DNA of 64,000 nt, taken from the NCBI GenBank assembly GCA_050250895.1, contig JBFWNU010000001.1:1774884-1838883 (forward strand), read 5' to 3'. A program made the translations under genes and the position numbers. This DNA is from Vulcanimicrobiota bacterium (GTDB lineage: Bacteria; Vulcanimicrobiota; Xenobia; Xenobiales; JADMJV01). Below, in pieces: positions 51,019 through 60,062 of the stretch (positions are counted from its first letter, which is position 1; each line of letters opens with the position of its first letter). The notes below the pieces were generated by a model. The model was not told where the DNA came from. It searched no databases and saw only the letters and a list, made by a program, of their open reading frames with translations.

Positions 51019-52275
51019 ATGGCCAGGATGGAAGTGCTCACCGCCGTCGATATTGGCACTAGCAAGGTGACCTGCATTATTGCCGAGGCGGATAGCCGTG
51101 GCGAAATCGAGGTCGCGGGTTGGGGGGTGTGCCCTTGTTCCGGGCTACGCAAGGGCGCCCTGGTCGATCCCGAACAGACTACGGCTGCCATCGAAGCGGC
51201 CGTCACCGAGGCCGAGCGTAAGGCCGGCTATAACGTGACCAACGTGCACTTGAGTTTGACCAGCGAGTATCTCAACTCGCTATCCAGTCACGGCGTGTGG
51301 GCTGTCTCCAATCAAGAGAACGAGATTGCTCCGGCCGACGTGCGCAAGGCTGTCGACGCCGCCAAGATGGTCGGTATCCCATCCGACCGCGAGATTATCC
51401 ACGTCGTTCCCCGTGGCTTCACTGTGGATGGGCACAACGGTATCCGCAATCCGGTCGGGTTGTCGGGTCTGCGGCTCGAAGTCGATACCCACGTGGTGGC
51501 GGCCAGTTCTGCCTATCTTCATAACATGTGCAAGTGCGTCCAGCGAGCTTCGCTAGAGATCGAGGAGGAGGGCCTGGTGGCCAGCCCCATCGCCTCGGGT
51601 CTGGCCGTGTTGACCGAAGAAGAGCGCAAGTTGGGCACGGCTATGATCGACATCGGTGCCGGCACGGTCGACCTTTCGGTCTATTGCGATGGCGAGATCG
51701 GGCACTCGGCCATTTTGCCGGTAGCTGGCGACCTCTTGACTCACGATCTGGCCAGGTTCTTTCGTATTCCTCCCAGCCAGGCCGAGAAGCTCAAGCTCGA
51801 GAAGGGTATCGTAGCTCCTTCTTATCTTAATTCCGATGAAGAAGAGCGCGACACGGAAACCATTGAAGCGGTTTCCCTTTCGGGTGAAGAATCCGTGGAG
51901 GTGTCGCGCTTCGAGATGGCTCAAGTGCTCGAGGCTCGGTTGCTCGATATCCTGGAGTGGGTCGGGCGCGAGCTCAAGCGGGCCGAGCAGCTCGGCCTGG
52001 TCGTCACCAGTCTGGTGATGACCGGCGGCACCTCTCAATTGCCCGGGTTGGCCAAGTTGACCCATCGCGAATTGGACATCCCTTGTCGCGTGGCCGCCCC
52101 ATGCTATCCCGCCGGGCTGCCCCAGGAGCTGGCTTCTCCGATTTACTCCACCGGCGTCGGGCTGTTGCTTTATTCGGCCTCGCGGACTCTGCTGCCAGGC
52201 GAACATGAGGTGGGCCCTTCCACCATGAAGGTATTCCTCGGGCGGGTCGGTCGGTGGTTGGCTGAAGTGTTCTAG
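51019..52275 (+). CDS. ftsA: Cell division protein FtsA
   Basis: AVDIGTSKV, GLRKG, NPVGLSGLRLE, IDIGAGT, AEKLK, TGGTSQLPG, C-terminal amphipathic helix. Confidence 0.95.
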   Translation: MARMEVLTAVDIGTSKVTCIIAEADSRGEIEVAGWGVCPCSGLRKGALVDPEQTTAAIEAAVTEAERKAGYNVTNVHLSLTSEYLNSLSSHGVWAVSNQENEIAPADVRKAVDAAKMVGIPSDREIIHVVPRGFTVDGHNGIRNPVGLSGLRLEVDTHVVAASSAYLHNMCKCVQRASLEIEEEGLVASPIASGLAVLTEEERKLGTAMIDIGAGTVDLSVYCDGEIGHSAILPVAGDLLTHDLARFFRIPPSQAEKLKLEKGIVAPSYLNSDEEERDTETIEAVSLSGEESVEVSRFEMAQVLEARLLDILEWVGRELKRAEQLGLVVTSLVMTGGTSQLPGLAKLTHRELDIPCRVAAPCYPAGLPQELASPIYSTGVGLLLYSASRTLLPGEHEVGPSTMKVFLGRVGRWLAEVF

Positions 52276-52277
52276 GC

Positions 52278-52778
52278 GTGCGCTGTCCCTATTGCGACTC
52301 GCAAGAGAACCGGGTGCTCGACTCCCGTCTCACTGATGAGGGCTATTCCATCCGGCGCCGGCGCGAGTGTCCGCAGTGCAGTCGTCGTTTCACGACCTAC
52401 GAGCGGTTCGAAGAGTCTTTGCTTATGGTACTCAAAAAGGATCGCCGCCGCGAGAAATTTGACCGCGCCAAGATCTTGAGGGGGCTGGTGCGAGCCTGTG
52501 AGAAGCGGCCCGTGTCCGGCGTCGAGATCGAAGAGTTGGTGGGGGCTGTCGAGCTGCAATTTCGCAATCAGGGTTTGGGCGAGGTCTCGGGCGAGCAGAT
52601 CGGCGAGCAGGTGATGGAGCGGCTACGCAGGCTGGATGAGGTAGCCTATGTCCGCTACGCTTCGGTCTATAAAGAGTTCAAGGATGTCAGCCAGTTCGTC
52701 GAAGAACTCAAAGTGCTCGACGCCATGAGAGGAACGAAGGCTGGGGGGGATGGCCCGGGGCGCGATGATTCAGAGTAG
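52278..52778 (+). CDS. nrdR: Transcriptional repressor NrdR
   Basis: RCPYC...VLDSR...RRRREC..C..RFTTYE; ATP cone; VAYVRYASVY. Confidence 0.96.
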   Translation: MRCPYCDSQENRVLDSRLTDEGYSIRRRRECPQCSRRFTTYERFEESLLMVLKKDRRREKFDRAKILRGLVRACEKRPVSGVEIEELVGAVELQFRNQGLGEVSGEQIGEQVMERLRRLDEVAYVRYASVYKEFKDVSQFVEELKVLDAMRGTKAGGDGPGRDDSE

Positions 52779-52912
52779 CCTCAAGAAATTATAAATGCAC
52801 CCCGGGCCAGACCCCTAGTTTACACTTGGGTCACCGAGCCGGTCAAGCCACAAAAGGAATGCAACCGGGAGGGGTGGAACGTGGCCGCTTACCCTGCTCA
52901 CTGGAGGGGCCA

Positions 52913-53731
52913 TTGCTGGCAAAAAAAATTGAAGAAGCGGTGGCGGCGGTTCGGCAACGTAGTGACGTGGTTGCCCATGCCGGCGTGATTCTAGGCTCAG
53001 GTTTGGGTCGCTTCGCCGACGAGGTGGAAGAAAGCGTTTCTATCCGCTTCGAGGATATCCCGCATTTCCCCGCCAGCACCGTATCGGGTCACGCTGGCGA
53101 ACTGGTGCTCGGCAAGTTTCACGGCCGGGGCGTGGCCGTCATGCGGGGGCGCGTTCACTATTATGAGGGCTACTCCATGCAGGAGATCACCTTTCCCGTT
53201 CGGGTGATGCGCGCCCTGGGGGCGGGTCTGCTGTTCGTCACCAACTCTTGTGGCGGCTTGCATCCCAAGTTTTTGCCAGGCGATCTGATGCTGATCGCCG
53301 ACCATATCAACATGATGGGCGACAATCCGTTGATTGGTCTCAATGATGAGCGTCTCGGGCCGCGCTTCCCACCCATGTCGCGGGCCTATGACGCCGACCT
53401 CCGCAAGTTGGCTCACGACGTGGCCTGCCATAACGGCATCAAGCTGCAAGAGGGGGTCTATTGCGCGCTCTCGGGGCCGAGCTACGAGACGCCAGCGGAG
53501 ATTCGCTTCTTTGAACGGATCGGAGCAGACGCGGTCGGAATGTCGACCGTTCCAGAGGTGATCGTGGCCAAGCACGCCGGCATGCGGGTGGTTGGTATCG
53601 CTTGTGTCACCAATGTGCTCCATCAGGGGCCCTCCAACGATACCCACGAAGATGTGCTCGAGGCTGCCGCCGGGGCCAGCACTCCGCTGCTGACTCTGGC
53701 TAAAGGCATTTTGGAACAGATGCCTCAATGA
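52913..53731 (+). CDS. punA: Purine-nucleoside phosphorylase (trimeric type)
   Basis: ILGSGLG, GHAG, GRVHYYEG, GPSYETPAE, VGMSTVPE; TTG start with GGAGG SD. Confidence 0.92.
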   Translation: MLAKKIEEAVAAVRQRSDVVAHAGVILGSGLGRFADEVEESVSIRFEDIPHFPASTVSGHAGELVLGKFHGRGVAVMRGRVHYYEGYSMQEITFPVRVMRALGAGLLFVTNSCGGLHPKFLPGDLMLIADHINMMGDNPLIGLNDERLGPRFPPMSRAYDADLRKLAHDVACHNGIKLQEGVYCALSGPSYETPAEIRFFERIGADAVGMSTVPEVIVAKHAGMRVVGIACVTNVLHQGPSNDTHEDVLEAAAGASTPLLTLAKGILEQMPQ

Positions 53732-55032
53732 ATCCGGTTGCCCTGATTCGCCACAAGCGGGACGGGAAGGCCCATACCCGCGAAGAGATTCAGGCGATCG
53801 TGGATGGGATTGTCGACGGTTCGATGGATAGTTATCAGACGGCTGCCTGGCTGATGGCTGTCTGGTTTCAGGGGATGACCGACGAGGAGACGGGCTGGTT
53901 GACCCAGGCCATGATCGATTCGGGCGACACGGTCGACCTGAGTTCCATTCCCGGTATCAAGGTCGACAAGCATTCGACCGGAGGAGTCGGGGATACTACC
54001 ACGCTGGTGTTAGCGCCTCTGGTTGCGGCGGCCGGTGCCAAGGTGGCCAAGATGTCGGGTCGGGGGCTGGGGCATACAGGGGGCACCCTCGACAAGATGG
54101 AGGCGGTCGGTCTGTCGGTCGACCTGGATAGTCAGCGTTTTCTGCAGCAAGTGCGCGACCTTGGGGTGGCGGTCATCAGCCAGACCAAGAAATTGGTGCC
54201 GGCTGATGGAATTCTCTATGGCTTGCGCGACGTGACGGCAACGATTGACTCGGTGCCCCTCATCGCCTCGTCGGTCATGAGCAAAAAGTTGGCTTGTGGG
54301 GCCGATGCGATTTTGCTGGATGTCAAGTTTGGCGACGGAGCCTTTATGCCCGACCTCGAGTCGGGCCGACGCCTGGCCCACTGCATGGTCGCTATCGGTA
54401 ATCGCCTGGGGCGGCGTGTTCGCGCGGCCCTTTCAGACATGGATTGTCCGCTCGGGACCCATATCGGCAACGCTCTGGAGTTTCGCGAAGCGATCGAGAT
54501 TTTGCGGGGTGAGCACGGCGACTCGGCCCTGGCCAGGGTCGCTCTTGAGCTGGCTGCACAGCTGGTGTTCATGGCGGACCTGACCGACGATCTCGAGGCG
54601 GCCCAGGCCCGCGTGCGCCAGTTGGTAGAGGATGGCTCGGCCCTCAAGCGCATGCGCGAATGGATCGCCGCCCAGGACGGCGACCCCAACATGGTGGACG
54701 ATCTCGGGCTGTTGCCGAAAGCTGCCGAGTGCGAGATTCTGACAGCCGAAGCGGCCGGCTTTGTGACCCGGATGCAGGCTCGCCAGATTGGGGAGGCGGC
54801 CATGGCTCTGGGAGCTGGGCGAGTGCGCAAAACAGACCCCGTCGATCCCGCGGTGGGAGTGGTCTTGTTGGTCGAGCCGGGGCAGACGGTAGAAAAGGGG
54901 CAGCCTCTGGCTGAGCTCCACTCCAACGATTCCAAACGGACGAGCCAGGCCCGGCAGGCCTTGCGAGAAGCTGTCGCTATCGGCAAAGAGGCCCCGCCGC
55001 CCAGGCAGTTGATCCGCGAGTTTATCGGCTGA
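53728..55032 (+). CDS. pdp: Pyrimidine-nucleoside/thymidine phosphorylase
   Basis: DKHSTGGVGD, KMSGRGLGHTGGTLDK, SSVMSKK, LGAGR. Confidence 0.94.
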   Translation: MNPVALIRHKRDGKAHTREEIQAIVDGIVDGSMDSYQTAAWLMAVWFQGMTDEETGWLTQAMIDSGDTVDLSSIPGIKVDKHSTGGVGDTTTLVLAPLVAAAGAKVAKMSGRGLGHTGGTLDKMEAVGLSVDLDSQRFLQQVRDLGVAVISQTKKLVPADGILYGLRDVTATIDSVPLIASSVMSKKLACGADAILLDVKFGDGAFMPDLESGRRLAHCMVAIGNRLGRRVRAALSDMDCPLGTHIGNALEFREAIEILRGEHGDSALARVALELAAQLVFMADLTDDLEAAQARVRQLVEDGSALKRMREWIAAQDGDPNMVDDLGLLPKAAECEILTAEAAGFVTRMQARQIGEAAMALGAGRVRKTDPVDPAVGVVLLVEPGQTVEKGQPLAELHSNDSKRTSQARQALREAVAIGKEAPPPRQLIREFIG

Positions 55033-55253
55033 GCGAGGCGGCGTTCCCTCCCTAAAAAGGATTCCCTCTGGCGATCGCCGAATTTTTCCGACAAGAACTG
55101 CTGATGCGTCGAGACAGACGTGACTGATTGTCCTGCGGCCGCCGGGGTGAGGCTTTCGGCCCCCCGATTTGTATAACTACCTTCTTACGCGGCAGGCGGA
55201 GACGTAACTGGGTTCGGCCCACGGCACTTCGAAATTTTTTACCGAGGTAGAAT

Positions 55254-57176
55254 ATGTCTCGTTACCGAGCCGTTCGCGGCACCTTTGACCTACTGCCAGA
55301 GCAGTTAGGGGCCTGGCATCATCTTGAGCAGGCAGCTCGACGCCTTTCCCACAACTACGGCTATGCCGAAATCAGGACCCCACTCTTCGAAGAAGCTGAG
55401 CTTTTTACCCGGGGTATGGGAGTATTGGCCGGCATCGTCGAGCGAGAGTTGTGGACCTTTCATGACAAGTTCGGCAAAAAACTCGCCCTGAGGGCCGATA
55501 TGACCACGGGAGTGGTGCGGGCCTTCCAGGAGCACAAGGGTGAGGCCGAAGGCCAACCTTTCAAAGTCTTCTATCTGGCACCCGTCTTTCTTCTGGGCAA
55601 GGATTCTGAGGAAGGCAGTCGCCAATCTCACCAGTTCGGAGTCGAGGCTATCGGTTCTGACAACCCGGCTCTCGACGCCGAGATGGTGGCTCTCGCTTCA
55701 GCCTTCTGCAACGAGATCGGGCTGGAAGGCCACAAGGTCGAGTTGAACTCGCTGGGTGGAGATAAGTGCCGTCCCCTCTATCACAAAAAGCTCAAAGACT
55801 ATTTCACTACTCATCAGAACGAGTTGTGCGCCACGTGCAAACGCAAGTTCAAAGCCCATCCGGCCTGGGTGCTTTCTTGTGAAGATCCCGCTTGTGTGGC
55901 CCTTTCTCAGGTCGCTCCCACCATCTATGGAATGCTCTCGAGCGACTGTAAGGCACACTTCAATACCCTCAAAGAGTATCTCAAAGAACTCGATATCAAC
56001 TTCGAACTCAATCCCCGAGTGGTGCGAGACCTCGAATACTACAACCGAACCGTGTTTCAGATTCGTTGCGGCGGCAAAGTGGTGGCCTTCGGCGGTCGTT
56101 ACGACGGCCTGGTCGAGGCTCTGGGGGGTAAGGCTACCCCTGGAGTGGGTTTTGCCGTCAATATCGAGACTGCTATCGACGTCTTGGGCAGCAACGCTAG
56201 AGAAGAAGATGTCGAGGGTCTTCAGGTCCTGCTCGACCCCGAGGGTCCAGAATCGACCAAGGTGATGGTGCCTGTCCTGGCCAGGCTGCGCCGAGCCGGA
56301 GTTCGCGCGGAGATGCGCTACGGACGCAGCGGCGCCGCTCTGCGTAAAAGCGCCCGCATCGTGGTCAAGCTCAATGAAGCCAACGCTTTTCGCGGTCACG
56401 CTATGCTCGAGGACTCGGAAGGCAGCGGCGACAAATTGCCGGCCGGTCGCCTGGGCGAGAAACTGTTGGCCTATCTCGGCGTAGACGAAGACTCTGGTAG
56501 CGGGGGCGGTTCTGATCGAGGTGGACGGCGCAAACTGTCGCGTCGTCCCCGCAAAGGGCGCGGAGAAGAGCGCGAGAGGGACCGCGACCGTGACAGGGAC
56601 CGTGACAGAGACCGAGACCGTGACAGAGATCGTGACCGTGACAGAGATCGTGACCGTGACAGAGACCGAGACCGTGACCGGGATCGCGACAAAGACCGTG
56701 ATCGAGACCGGGATCGAGACAAAGACCGTGACCGCGACAAAGACCGCGACCGCTCGCGTTCACGGGGCGGTCGGTCGAACGAGGCTGCCAACGAGCAGCG
56801 GGAACGGCCCGACGAGGATGAGGGACGTCGGCGCAAGCGCGGCCGTCGCCGCAAACAGGCCGAGGAGGAAGGTCGTCGCCCCGACGAACCAGCCGCTCCC
56901 CCGCGTCGCCAGGCCGAAACCGAGAAGGCATTCATCCCCTCACTGATGTTGGCCAATGTCGACGCCGAGCCGCTGCCGCGAGCCCCGCGTCCCAAGCCGA
57001 GCCGTCGTGATGAGCCGGCTTCAGAGCATGTTCCCGAGATGACCTCGGGTTTGAGTTGGTCGATCATGCCGGCCGCGCCGGCTCGCGGTGAAGGGAAGGA
57101 AGACTCGCCGTCGGGCGATAATTCCCGCCGGCGCAGCCGCTCCCGAAGCGCTGCTTCGAAGGAATCCGAAGAATGA
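55254..57176 (+). CDS. Histidyl-tRNA synthetase-like protein with degenerate catalytic motifs and Arg/Asp-rich C-terminal tail
   Basis: RGTFD, YGYAEIRTPLFE, HQFGVE, VRDLEYYNRTVF and GGRYDGL give the HisRS fold; motif-2 and motif-3 Arg absent; about 230-aa low-complexity tail. Confidence 0.8.
   Translation: MSRYRAVRGTFDLLPEQLGAWHHLEQAARRLSHNYGYAEIRTPLFEEAELFTRGMGVLAGIVERELWTFHDKFGKKLALRADMTTGVVRAFQEHKGEAEGQPFKVFYLAPVFLLGKDSEEGSRQSHQFGVEAIGSDNPALDAEMVALASAFCNEIGLEGHKVELNSLGGDKCRPLYHKKLKDYFTTHQNELCATCKRKFKAHPAWVLSCEDPACVALSQVAPTIYGMLSSDCKAHFNTLKEYLKELDINFELNPRVVRDLEYYNRTVFQIRCGGKVVAFGGRYDGLVEALGGKATPGVGFAVNIETAIDVLGSNAREEDVEGLQVLLDPEGPESTKVMVPVLARLRRAGVRAEMRYGRSGAALRKSARIVVKLNEANAFRGHAMLEDSEGSGDKLPAGRLGEKLLAYLGVDEDSGSGGGSDRGGRRKLSRRPRKGRGEERERDRDRDRDRDRDRDRDRDRDRDRDRDRDRDRDRDRDRDKDRDRDRDRDKDRDRDKDRDRSRSRGGRSNEAANEQRERPDEDEGRRRKRGRRRKQAEEEGRRPDEPAAPPRRQAETEKAFIPSLMLANVDAEPLPRAPRPKPSRRDEPASEHVPEMTSGLSWSIMPAAPARGEGKEDSPSGDNSRRRSRSRSAASKESEE
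56580..56753 (+). repeat. Coding 6-bp repeat, about 29 Asp-Arg/Lys dipeptides
   Basis: GACCGT/GACAGA/GATCGT/GACCGA/GACAAA units with mixed synonymous codons. Confidence 0.95.
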
Positions 57177-57637
57177 ACAAGACCGTCGAGTTAACCCGTC
57201 AATTGGCCGAGATCGCGAAAGCCAACGACCTGGCTGAGTTGGAATTTCAAGAGGGCGACGTGCGCATTCACATCGTGCTCGAGACCGAGGCTGCTGTCGC
57301 GGCAGCCGTGCCGCAGGTGGTCCTGGCTCACGGTCATCCGATGGCGGGGCCGGCCCCGGTGGCTCAGGCGCCTGCCGCCGAGCCGGCGGCACCGGCGATC
57401 GAGGGTGATACCATCGACTCGCCCCTACCCGGGGTCTTCTACCGCGCTTCCCGACCCGGAGCCCCGGCTTTCGTCGAGGAAGGGCAACAGGTTGCGCCGG
57501 GTCAGACGCTGTGTATTGTCGAGGCGATGAAGCTGATGAACGAGATTTCAGCCGAACGCCCCGGCAAGATCATGAAGATCCTGGTCGCCAACGGCGATGC
57601 CGTCGAAGAAGGCCAACCCCTCTTCGTTATCGCGTGA
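57173..57637 (+). CDS. accB: Acetyl-CoA carboxylase biotin carboxyl carrier protein
   Basis: SPLPGVFYRA, IVEAMKLMNEI biotinylation motif, Ala/Pro linker; ATGA overlap with the HisRS-like gene. Confidence 0.95.
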   Translation: MNKTVELTRQLAEIAKANDLAELEFQEGDVRIHIVLETEAAVAAAVPQVVLAHGHPMAGPAPVAQAPAAEPAAPAIEGDTIDSPLPGVFYRASRPGAPAFVEEGQQVAPGQTLCIVEAMKLMNEISAERPGKIMKILVANGDAVEEGQPLFVIA

Positions 57638-57694
57638 GCAGGGAGCGCCGACGCTGTCGGCGAGCAGAGGAGCCGTGCGCTTCGCGCGGAGCTT

Positions 57695-57767
57695 TCGGCC
57701 TGCGGCCGACAGGGAGCGCGGCTGACGCCGCTAGAAGTTCTTTCCGGAGGGAGCGGCAGCGACCGAC
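57695..57767 (+). repeat. REP/MITE-like intergenic repeat, copy 1
   Basis: tcggcctgcggccgacagggagcgcggctgacgccg...cggagggagcggcagcgaccgac matches the reverse complement of 61056-61129. Confidence 0.85.
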
Positions 57768-57899
57768 GCTCCTTTCCCGCCAGCCAAAAACGAGCCGTTT
57801 CCTTGAAATATTTTCAGAAGTGGCCCTTGTTCGGCAGGATGGAACGATCCCCAGGGTTAAGGCTTTCATACACACTTCGCGTAGTGGAAAGCAGGGTAG

Positions 57900-60062
57900 A
57901 TGTTGGTATTCGGCCGCCTTGGCAAAAGGGTCAAGAACATCCTCGGTAGAGATTTCGATCTGGAGGGGCTCACCCAGGCTCGACGTCAAGAACGACAGGG
58001 TTTGACGATCGAAGACGAAGAGCTGTATTGCCTTCTCCGGCCGGCCACGGCCGCCCTCGAAAAGGCCCGCACCGAGGCCGGGCGCGGCGAGATGGGTGCG
58101 GCTGCTCAGGCTTTGTCCGAGCATTTTTGCGAGCGGGTGCGGCCGGTCGTGTTCGCGCACCAGGCTCACGGCGCGGCGCTGGTTCCTCAGTTTCGCGAGA
58201 ATCGCCACCTTTGGAAGGCTTTGCTGGTTGCAGCCGAGCGGGCCATGAGCCACGAGTTCACCCCACTCGAGGGCGAGCCATTCAGCTTCGGGACTTCCAT
58301 CGATTGGTTCAGCGACTTTCAGGGGCGCTCCTGGATTTTCGGGCACGTGGCCGACCTGCAAGACCGACTCAAGCGTGAGAGTCTCGACGGCATGGGCCCG
58401 GTCGAGCGCACCTGGGACTTCAATCGGCACGGCCACTTTGTCGACCTGGCCCGGGCCTACTGGCTTAGCCGTCAGGAGTCGCTGGTGGGAGAATTCCTGG
58501 TCCAGGCTGCCGATTGGGCCGAACGAAATCCTTGCATGGGCGGCATCAACTGGCTCTGCCCGACCACCAACGCGGCGCGCGCCGTCAACTGGCTGGTAAG
58601 CTTTCATTTCATGCTGGGCTCGCCCCAGTTGCGCGGCGAACCCACCGTGCGCTTGTTGCGCCAGTTGATCCTCCACGGTGCGATTCTCAACGATTGCCTG
58701 CTGATCCGGCGCAAGAAGGGTCGACTGGCCATGGCCAGCGCCCTGACCATGCTGGCTTTGAGTTTCCCCGAGTTGACCTGTGCGCGTCGCTGGCTCGAGG
58801 TGGGCACCGCCTTTTTGCTCGATACTATCGACCGCGATTTCGAGGATGGGGGCTTTCATCGTTCGGGCTCGTCGGCCCGCCACCGTGAGGCGGTCGAGTG
58901 GTTGCTTCTGCCGCTGGCCCTCTATCGGCTCAACCGCTGCAGCCCTCCGCCCGGATTGGCCGAAGCGGCCCATCAGGCTGTATCGGTGATGGCTCTGTGC
59001 ACTCCCGCCCACGGGCAGCCCCCTGAGCTGGGAGCCACCTGGGCCAATCAGTTCTTGGGCCGGGGCGTTACCTCGGTGGGCCACACCCGCCGTTTGATGG
59101 CCCTCGGGGCGCTGGTGTGCGAGCGCGCCGACCTGCCCTTGCCGACGGAGTTCCCGGTCGAATTGTTGTGGTGGCTGGGTCCCGAGGCTCAACAACGCTG
59201 GACCCAGCTGCAGGCCACTCCCGGACAGACCCTTTCGGGGGCCTATTCTCAGGCCGGGATAGCCGTGGTGCGCAACCATTGGGAGGGGAATGCCAGCTGG
59301 GCCCTTCTGCGGGGACGGCCGCGGGCGCTCGAGCCCGATCTGATGGCACCCGCTCCGGCCAGTCTGCCGACCCATGACGATTTTCTCAGTCTCAACCTTA
59401 GTCTCGAGGGCGAGCCCGTCCTGCTGGAGCCGGGCGCTCCCGTTGCGCCTGGCTCGGTGCGGATGGCATTTTCTCGGGTCGCCGCTCACTCTTCGCCGCG
59501 AGTGGCTCGCGAGCGAGAGCCTTTGACCCTGGGTCGGTCCGGTGAAGAAGGAGCGACCCTGCGCAAGGTTCCTGAGGGCACCTATCTGGGTGCCTCGCGG
59601 CCCGTCTGGCTCATGCCCGACCGACCCTGGGAATTGACTCGCGAGGTTCTGTTCATGCCGGGCAGGAAGCACATCGCCATTCGGGATCAACTCGACGGCG
59701 AAGGCGAGTTGCACTTTGAGTCCTCGCTTTTGCTTTCATCCCATCTCGATGTTTTGATGCGAGGTGACATGGGCTGCCTGTTGCGAGGTAAGCAGCTGCA
59801 AGCCCGCATTGTTCCCATCTTTCCGACCCGGTTTCGTTACGATCTGGTGCGAGGCTGCGCCAATCCCTTCGGAGGCTGGGTTTGGTCTGGAAAACCGCAG
59901 GGGGTCCATCGACTGCGCTATTTCACGCGGATCGAGGCCCCCTTCACGGTTTATCTCTGGCTGGCCTGGAACCCCAACGACACCAAAGTGCCCCGGGTAG
60001 AAGAGCTTGACCGGTTGTTTGCTCAGGCCCGGCGCGCCCCGGTGCCGGTCGGGGCTCGCTAA
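57900..60062 (+). CDS. Heparinase II/III-family protein (possibly catalytically degenerate)
   Basis: WDFNRHGHF..LARAY, W...NP...GINW, FEDGG, AGIAVVR, THDD.LS, REV. Confidence 0.7.
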   Translation: MLVFGRLGKRVKNILGRDFDLEGLTQARRQERQGLTIEDEELYCLLRPATAALEKARTEAGRGEMGAAAQALSEHFCERVRPVVFAHQAHGAALVPQFRENRHLWKALLVAAERAMSHEFTPLEGEPFSFGTSIDWFSDFQGRSWIFGHVADLQDRLKRESLDGMGPVERTWDFNRHGHFVDLARAYWLSRQESLVGEFLVQAADWAERNPCMGGINWLCPTTNAARAVNWLVSFHFMLGSPQLRGEPTVRLLRQLILHGAILNDCLLIRRKKGRLAMASALTMLALSFPELTCARRWLEVGTAFLLDTIDRDFEDGGFHRSGSSARHREAVEWLLLPLALYRLNRCSPPPGLAEAAHQAVSVMALCTPAHGQPPELGATWANQFLGRGVTSVGHTRRLMALGALVCERADLPLPTEFPVELLWWLGPEAQQRWTQLQATPGQTLSGAYSQAGIAVVRNHWEGNASWALLRGRPRALEPDLMAPAPASLPTHDDFLSLNLSLEGEPVLLEPGAPVAPGSVRMAFSRVAAHSSPRVAREREPLTLGRSGEEGATLRKVPEGTYLGASRPVWLMPDRPWELTREVLFMPGRKHIAIRDQLDGEGELHFESSLLLSSHLDVLMRGDMGCLLRGKQLQARIVPIFPTRFRYDLVRGCANPFGGWVWSGKPQGVHRLRYFTRIEAPFTVYLWLAWNPNDTKVPRVEELDRLFAQARRAPVPVGAR

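Follow-up and report, generated by a model that had tools for sequence, protein, structure and literature searches.

The window considered here, a stretch of 64,000 nucleotides (nt) from a Vulcanimicrobiota bacterium (GCA_050250895.1, contig JBFWNU010000001.1, positions 1,774,884-1,838,883 of the forward strand), carries at 55254-57176 (+) a gene whose product resembles histidyl-tRNA synthetase (HisRS). The genome to which it belongs (labelled G000) amounts to 9.5 Mb in 17 contigs and is 99.64% complete. The gene begins with an ATG, with a GAGG ribosome-binding site 9 nt upstream, and runs uninterrupted, with no internal stop, for 640 residues, so that the frame is intact, as an earlier reading made from the letters alone (the sequence-only reading) had stated. 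The open reading frame, Pfam and NCBIfam matches and structure alignment describe the product as a HisRS-like pseudoenzyme with a disordered C-terminal tail. It consists of a catalytic-like class II core with the HisRS insertion domain (residues 1-320; 55254-56213 (+)), in which motif 1 (residues 37-54) and the insertion-domain cysteines are conserved, as seen in the AlphaFold 2 (AF2) model, in Foldseek alignments and in invariant columns; an anticodon-binding-domain fold of diverged sequence, placed by AF2 and Foldseek (residues ~321-408; 56214-56477 (+)); and the tail (residues 409-640). The stop codon overlaps, in an ATGA at 57173-57176, the start of accB (57173-57637 (+)), which encodes a biotin carboxyl carrier protein of 154 residues and, from its reading frame, Pfam match and synteny, is the ancestral neighbour of hisS in the phylum.

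Profile searches relate the protein to bacterial HisRS. The Pfam model tRNA-synt_His matches residues 9-306 (1.7e-42), and the only other Pfam match is a weak one to tRNA-synt_2b. The NCBIfam hisS model (TIGR00442) gives 298.4 bits, a narrow pass over its cutoff of 286.75, and the hisZ model (TIGR00443) gives 151.2 bits, well short of the 271.65 that it requires. Among solved structures the protein is closest to bacterial HisRS, the first being 1qe0 from S. aureus (1.3e-66), and identity to the solved HisRS structures is 30-33%.

The motifs were read from a residue alignment to 1qe0 and from a MAFFT alignment of 122 sequences (the query, the other HisRS of the genome and 120 database homologs). 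Motif 2 (residues 107-134; 55572-55655 (+)), canonically FRYERPQ..GR.RQF, is replaced by FLLGKDSEEGSRQS, in which the motif-2 arginine has become L113, G115 is a further change and S125 takes the place of the adenine-stacking phenylalanine; R123, Q127 and E131 are kept and the charge of the loop is about zero. In motif 3 the canonical G.ER is replaced by NIET and the arginine by T306; the HisB motif GGRYD, which lies in the same segment (56091-56174 (+)), is kept. LRPEGT has become LRADMT (55488-55505 (+); Glu to Asp, with the Thr kept), and the HisA motif RGLDYY has become RDLEYY (56016-56057 (+); Gly to Asp and Asp to Glu), with R258, Y262 and Y263 in place. D82, T84, motif 1 and the insertion-domain cysteines are retained as well. 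The roles of these residues in the present protein (ATP phosphate contacts, adenine stacking, histidine pocket) we take to be those of the E. coli and T. thermophilus HisRS structures, and the motif-2 and motif-3 arginines are, to our knowledge, universal in class II synthetases. All the substitutions listed in the sequence-only reading (FLLGKD...RQS, NIET, LRADMT and RDLEYY) are borne out by the two alignments, and its proposal of a pseudo-synthetase without ATP-binding residues agrees with L113, S125 and T306. The alignments predict that the protein is unable to form histidyl-adenylate, and that most residues of the histidine pocket, the HisRS dimer scaffold and the fold of the anticodon domain would be retained.

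The AF2 model of residues 1-420, built from a 62-sequence alignment, has a mean predicted local distance difference test score (pLDDT) of 92.3 and a predicted template modelling score (pTM) of 0.86. Foldseek aligns it over its full length to the bacterial HisRS 4e51_A (E 4.6e-40, template modelling score (TM-score) 0.90, 419 columns) and gives lower TM-scores, of about 0.7-0.76, to archaeal and eukaryotic HisRS. The Pfam model HGTP_anticodon finds no match in the protein; the AF2 model nevertheless has the complete beta-alpha-beta topology of the anticodon domain at residues 325-407 (pLDDT ~87-95), in keeping with the degenerate anticodon domain that had been proposed.

The protein is not the only HisRS of its genome. 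A search for a canonical hisS elsewhere, suggested together with the sequence-only reading, found one at G000:C1:741106-742374, which scores 353.1 bits with TIGR00442. Its motif 2 is intact (WRGERPQEGRFREF), as are RGLDYY and the motif-3 arginine, and its anticodon domain is detected by Pfam. This HisRS, referred to below as the second type, is only ~25-30% identical to the HisRS-like protein, is fully canonical and presumably charges tRNA-His. The genome holds a single tRNA-His (GTG) with a genome-encoded G-1, C73 and CCA, that is, a normal bacterial G-1:C73 pair. A switch in tRNA-His identity was considered as the cause of the replacement of one HisRS by another and was rejected, since G-1, C73 and CCA are all kept.

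A search with residues 1-400 through 5.8 billion proteins found 65 long homologs of 382-860 residues and 44-76% identity (64 have at least 554 residues and one is a partial of 382), below which lie ordinary HisRS of ~420 residues at 38-48% identity. The long homologs that carry a source label are assigned to Eremiobacterota, Vulcanimicrobiota, Xenobia, one Armatimonadetes and one Nitrosotenuis metagenome-assembled genome. In the MAFFT alignment the motif-2 and motif-3 arginines are lost in 65/65 members of this family, and the standard residues are kept in 55/55 canonical HisRS; the net charge of the motif-2 loop has a median of 0 in the family versus +3 in the canonical enzymes. The 65 members share new motifs of their own, with the consensus FLLGKEGE..SRQSHQFG and RD.EYY.

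The distribution of the family was followed in 150 genomes across the phylum, in addition to G000, that were searched with both types of HisRS. Within the window's order, 39/39 further genomes have the second-type HisRS (38 at E<=1e-113) and 37/39 have the long degenerate gene (35 at E<=1e-85); the weak or missing cases of the latter are G046 (90% complete), G080 (72%) and G094 (78%), along with a contig-end fragment in G084. All four genomes from other orders of the same class have both types. The 107 genomes of other classes have the bacterial type only (102, one of which, G127, is flagged as unpublished and enters this tally only) or the second type only (5), and none has both. Over the 151 genomes, the degenerate form is thus found only where the second-type HisRS occurs. 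The state of the gene also changes along the phylum: in sister classes it has canonical motifs and no tail; in the same-class family f4 the motif-2 and motif-3 arginines are kept, HisA is altered (HGLNYY, HNLGYY, NALGIY) and an R/E/D/A-rich tail is present; in the window's order both arginines are gone. The homologs of family f2 (loci L081-L085, from genomes of ~2-3.5 Mb) show further decay and are frames of 730-1015 residues, whose far C-terminus appears by eye to be Tyr/Asp/Ser-rich (YSDYMKYY-type) and then RS-rich at its end, unlike the low complexity of the window's tail.

The second-type HisRS has a history of its own. The version found in the window's order (N-terminus SGFPEWLP; loci L036-L065 and L096-L101) is only 34-39% identical to the version of f4, f5, f11, f17 and f18 (KGFRDYLP); its stem measures 1.09 substitutions per site, and the node that it shares with the other second-type sequences has a support of 78/59. 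Judged from these sequences, the second type could have been acquired once and then changed rapidly, or acquired on two separate occasions.

The loss of the ATP-site residues could also be read in another manner, namely that the protein is a second HisRS, still active, with an unusual mode of ATP binding (arginines of the tail, or others, might act in trans), and that it serves under a special condition or as a resistant isozyme. The pass over the TIGR00442 cutoff speaks for this, as do the retention of R258, Y262/Y263, GGRYD, Q127, E131 and the whole fold, anticodon domain included, and the unchanged G-1:C73 pair of the tRNA-His; duplicated isozymes of aminoacyl-tRNA synthetases (aaRS) are also described as common in a review (PMC9437257). 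We nonetheless consider an active isozyme very unlikely, given that the two arginines and the stacking phenylalanine are lost in every one of the 65 members and that the motif-2 loop is neutral or acidic; in addition, the decay of the gene in the f2 homologs fits continued selection only if catalysis is not what is selected.

The position of the protein relative to HisS and HisZ, a further check put forward with the sequence-only reading, was established with a tree (IQ-TREE, 55 rows, 425 columns, LG+C20+F+G4). The degenerate paralogs of the order form one group (100/99), which joins the tailed copies of the same class (99/98) and lies, with them, inside the bacterial-type HisRS (100/100). The second-type HisRS form a separate clade (100/99), and so do the HisZ (100/100). 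Of the six HisZ rows, the three that were compared with TIGR00443 all exceed its cutoff. The row of G090 has a long branch (1.56), so its exact position is unsure. True HisZ of the same phylum score 295-313 with TIGR00443.

These results bear on a second alternative, in which the protein would be a HisZ-like allosteric subunit through which histidine controls ATP phosphoribosyltransferase or some other enzyme. In its favour, the protein has the profile of HisZ, with the ATP-site arginines lost and the histidine pocket largely kept, and HisZ mediates the inhibition of HisG by histidine (PMC9437257, PMC9734150). Against it stand the score far below the HisZ cutoff, the separation from verified HisZ at 100/100 and the absence of a charged tail from HisZ. 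Moreover, no hisG is adjacent to the gene, as had been remarked before: the single hisG of the genome sits on another contig (C2) and is of the long form, in which a HisG_C regulatory domain is built in (5.2e-23), and a long-form HisG needs no HisZ. A HisZ-like role is therefore, in our estimate, highly improbable.

Synteny completes the account of descent. In the order, accB lies immediately downstream of the degenerate gene in 18/30 loci, the other 12 being too short, fragments, or with an open reading frame that runs off the end. Outside the order it lies immediately downstream of the bacterial-type hisS, mostly a canonical gene of ~420-440 residues, in 10/15 loci; three of the remaining five have no accB and two are cut by contig ends. 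Taken together, the survey, the motifs, the synteny and the tree establish that the HisRS-like gene is the ancestral bacterial-type hisS of the phylum, descended in place at the original hisS-accB locus. The sequence-only reading had called it a HisRS paralog translationally coupled to accB. The derivation from HisRS holds, but the gene is not a duplicate; it is the ancestral hisS, displaced by the second-type HisRS. The ATGA overlap is likewise there, but since the hisS-accB adjacency is shared with canonical hisS in sister classes, the overlap reflects an inherited gene order and gives no clue to a new function or functional link.

The tail has 232 residues, among them 61 R, 39 D, 24 E, 11 K and 21 S, and is predicted to be disordered (AF2 pLDDT ~40-53). 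Repeat and mixed-charge scans delimit in it a (RD)n / (KD) mixed-charge run of genome-specific sequence (residues 439-505; 56568-56768 (+)), whose DNA is an imperfect tandem repeat of 12/18/30 nt at 56580-56752. This is the strongest mixed-charge segment in the 9.5-Mb genome (among open frames of at least 150 residues, 11 of which pass the filter), and it is missing from the homolog of the same genus. The Arg-Asp mixed-charge tail pointed out earlier is present in the window's gene, but the repeat belongs to this genome; the family as a whole conserves a tail of mixed charge, positive on balance, that carries short motifs. The tails of the family (n=65) have a median of 220 residues (range 140-445), are 45% charged and are net positive in 60/65 members. 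Their composition differs from member to member, with R/D, R/E, R/S and K/S mixes, and is K/S/E/P-rich in the homolog of the same genus.

Three conserved elements were located in the tail from family columns. Directly after the anticodon domain comes a basic patch, GGRRKLSRRPRKGRG (residues 423-437; 56520-56564 (+)), in which R425, L428 and R430 are nearly invariant. Tail motif 1, EKAFIPSLMLAN (residues 557-568; 56922-56957 (+)), has the family form KA[FI][IV]P[SA][LF].LG with an invariant P562. Tail motif 2, GLSWSIMP (residues 599-606; 57048-57071 (+)), has the family form L[NS]WSI.P with invariant W602 and S603 and is also visible in the AF2 model, where it is the only segment of the tail with raised pLDDT (mean 66 for the block 601-610, with a two-residue beta bridge). 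Both motifs are present in 48/65 members, 40-60 residues apart. No further open frame of 80 residues or more in the genome contains the pair, so a docking tag shared among its proteins is unsupported. A complex prediction between the core (1-412) and the tail (548-625) gave 0.01 against a mark of 0.32, which is not evidence either way. Related W-containing motifs are found in the tails of f4, of the same class.

The evolution of the gene was quantified with the ratio of nonsynonymous to synonymous substitution rates (dN/dS), again a check named with the sequence-only reading. Between G000 and the same-genus genome G088, dS is saturated; dN is 0.211 for the core, 0.212 for the working HisRS, 0.258 for accB and 0.66 for the tail. 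Because of this saturation, five closer pairs within the family were used, in which dN/dS is 0.024-0.127 for the core and 0.13-0.275 for the tail. Both parts are thus under purifying selection. For the second-type HisRS the ratio is 0.037, 0.271 and 0.199 in three pairs, and dS is saturated in a fourth. The dN and dN/dS of the core are as low as those of the working HisRS, which places the dead enzyme under the same degree of constraint as the live one. That the gene could be a relic without protein function, its frame kept because its translation drives that of the coupled accB, as the ATGA overlap and the hisS-accB adjacency across the phylum might suggest, is scarcely credible, since selection for translation alone would neither hold dN/dS at a level equal to that of an essential HisRS nor conserve FLLGKEGE..SRQS, RD.EYY or P562, W602 and S603 of the tail, the old gene was lost outright in five genomes of other families that have only the second-type HisRS, and the long gene is kept in 5/5 wider f2 loci where accB is not adjacent.

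The explanation that we favour, and hold to be likely, is that the protein is a displaced ancestral HisRS in which the ATP-site residues are gone and a tail under selection has been added, and that it has a non-catalytic, selected function. A second, distantly related HisRS, present in the window's class, presumably relieved the ancestral hisS of the charging of tRNA-His, yet the old gene was kept. It acquired the long, disordered, net-positive tail, which is already present in sister orders of the same class, and the window's order then lost both class II ATP-binding arginines and the adenine-stacking phenylalanine. The features by which pseudoenzymes of the aaRS are generally recognised are found together in this protein: the fold is kept, the catalytic residues are lost, purifying selection operates and a working enzyme is encoded elsewhere in the genome.

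As to what a displaced HisRS of this kind might do, we propose tentatively, and with rather less than even confidence, a dimeric adaptor that senses a ligand or is associated with RNA. The dead core would bind histidine, the anticodon arm of tRNA-His, or both, the tail would bind RNA non-specifically through the basic patch and the cationic low-complexity region, and the two short motifs, with their spacing of 40-60 residues, would recruit a partner. The tRNA/His-binding or condensate-associated role put forward in the sequence-only reading is likewise conjectural.

Several observations weigh against this picture or narrow it. In the f2 homologs, from small genomes (genera g4, g5 and g7), the histidine pocket is degraded (VPDVECYN, GGRCD, FGVGAVG), and the sensing of histidine therefore cannot be the function of the whole family. 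The neutral motif-2 loop argues against normal binding of the acceptor stem. In 17/65 members the tail motifs are missing or different, and no partner for them was found. Lastly, the opposite charges of a strictly alternating (RD)n segment are well mixed, and a polyampholyte of this sort does not necessarily bind RNA or condense.

The C-terminal domain of the eukaryotic kinase GCN2 is basic. The HisRS-like domain of GCN2 is catalytically dead and senses uncharged tRNA, and the C-terminal region that follows it serves in ribosome or RNA association (PMC11606652, PMC4335047). The window's protein might be a free-standing bacterial counterpart of this sensor, in which the core would read histidine or uncharged tRNA-His, and the tail, Arg-rich and of mixed charge in the eukaryotic manner, would with its two docking motifs couple the signal to a partner or to an RNA-protein assembly; we regard this version as rather unlikely. 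The two systems are alike in that a dead HisRS-like module is followed by a C-terminal region. They differ in that GCN2 is eukaryotic and fused to a kinase, whereas Pfam finds no kinase, pseudokinase or effector domain in the present protein, the motifs of which lie in a disordered tail only, and the analysis showed no homology between them other than a common HisRS ancestry. Should this version be true, HisRS would have been recruited for signalling three times independently, and the protein would be one of the rare bacterial examples in which a conserved tail of mixed charge carries short linear motifs.

Comparison with the other known systems sets the displaced HisRS apart. With bacterial HisRS (TIGR00442; 4e51, 1qe0, 1kmm, 4rdx) it shares direct descent, the same three-part fold, the position next to accB, and the HisA Arg/Tyr-Tyr, HisB GGRYD and motif 1; unlike them, it has no motif-2 and motif-3 arginines or stacking phenylalanine, its loop is neutral, it bears a tail of 232 residues and there is a second HisRS in its genome. 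HisZ is a HisRS-derived bacterial pseudoenzyme that has lost adenylation, as the present protein probably has, and the role of HisZ is histidine-responsive (PMC9437257); the two differ in their independent origins, in the score below the HisZ cutoff, in the absence of a short-form HisG, and in the full anticodon fold and charged tail of the present protein. It follows that the protein belongs neither to HisZ, for which the model, the clade and the partner all fail, nor to GCN2, as there is no kinase. In the portion seen of this same review of aaRS duplication, from 2022, HisZ is the only HisRS paralog listed (PMC9437257), and a search of the literature on HisRS paralogs and pseudoenzymes, on synthetases of Eremiobacterota and Xenobia and on HisRS-like proteins and HisZ returned only HisZ and the GCN2 domain, and nothing on this family.

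Synthetase-derived pseudoenzymes are few and instructive, and here one phylum spans the path: intact enzymes in sister classes, a tail and an altered HisA in sister orders, and the loss of the ATP site in the window's order, with later stages represented by the deep decay seen in the frames of ~900-1000 residues of small genomes and by the outright loss in the five second-type-only genomes of other families. This is a natural series in which to study the repurposing, instead of the loss, of an essential enzyme. The conserved cationic tail, with motifs at a fixed spacing, offers a concrete handle for finding partners. There is also a consequence for annotation. Homologs P0011, P0013, P0023, P0035, P0041 and others bear the public names 'histidine--tRNA ligase' or 'histidyl-tRNA synthetase'; as the family passes the hisS equivalog cutoff, the genomes wrongly seem to hold two working HisRS, and the public naming of the family as histidine--tRNA ligase is probably a systematic misannotation.

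Resemblances of the tail to proteins outside the family are matters of composition. Its matches to the NELF-E RD region, to protein Red and to a CC1-like splicing-factor model arise through low complexity only, and a search of the ESM Atlas with the tail returned hits that were all below 0.8, compositional, low-TM matches to eukaryotic RS/RD-rich proteins that are a lead at most. The likeness to the Arg-rich mixed-charge (RD/RE/RS) domains of eukaryotic RNA-processing proteins, and to the disordered insertion of some bacterial Rho factors, is similarly compositional only and is not homology. The genome-wide mixed-charge scan found just one further RD/RS-rich protein, the RNA-binding Rho factor. 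In this Rho, encoded at G000:C6:15588-17312 (locus L094, 589-2313), an acidic-basic stretch rich in RD/RE/RS is inserted after Rho_N and ahead of the RNA-binding domain.

Around the gene, the 221-nt gap on its 5' side holds no recognisable promoter or Rfam element. A sigma-70 scan around the gene found zero sites, terminator-like sites were not above the expectation from shuffled sequence, and an Rfam scan of 54900-58000 gave two matches, both under the gathering score and judged to be due to chance. Among the public sequencing runs searched there was no RNA run with the sequence, and two DNA runs each gave a 0.05 share of words. On the 3' side of accB, at 57900-60062 of the window, lies the gene of a heparinase II/III-like protein of 720 residues (Pfam Hepar_II_III_N 5.8e-17, Hepar_II_III_C 1.9e-05) and not accC, which means that accB lacks its usual accC partner there.

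Upstream on the same strand, the window carries at 52826-55032 a gene of the purine-nucleoside-phosphorylase family (PNP_UDP_1, 1.3e-56) and a pyrimidine-nucleoside phosphorylase (Glycos_transf_3 + PYNP_C). Before these, at 51019-52778, an ftsA-like open reading frame (418 residues), ~3 kb upstream of the HisRS-like gene, is followed directly by an nrdR-like one and not by ftsZ, both names having been read from the translations alone. The nearby ftsA prompted the idea that tail motif 1 mimics the C-terminal peptide of FtsZ; the peptides of the genome's FtsZ homologs, EPAIFRR and LPAIWRR, offer no convincing match to FIPSLMLA, and the idea was dropped. These two FtsZ homologs are encoded at C6:6064-6987 (EPAIFRR) and C1:883513-884439 (LPAIWRR) and have long linkers rich in Pro, Ala and Lys.

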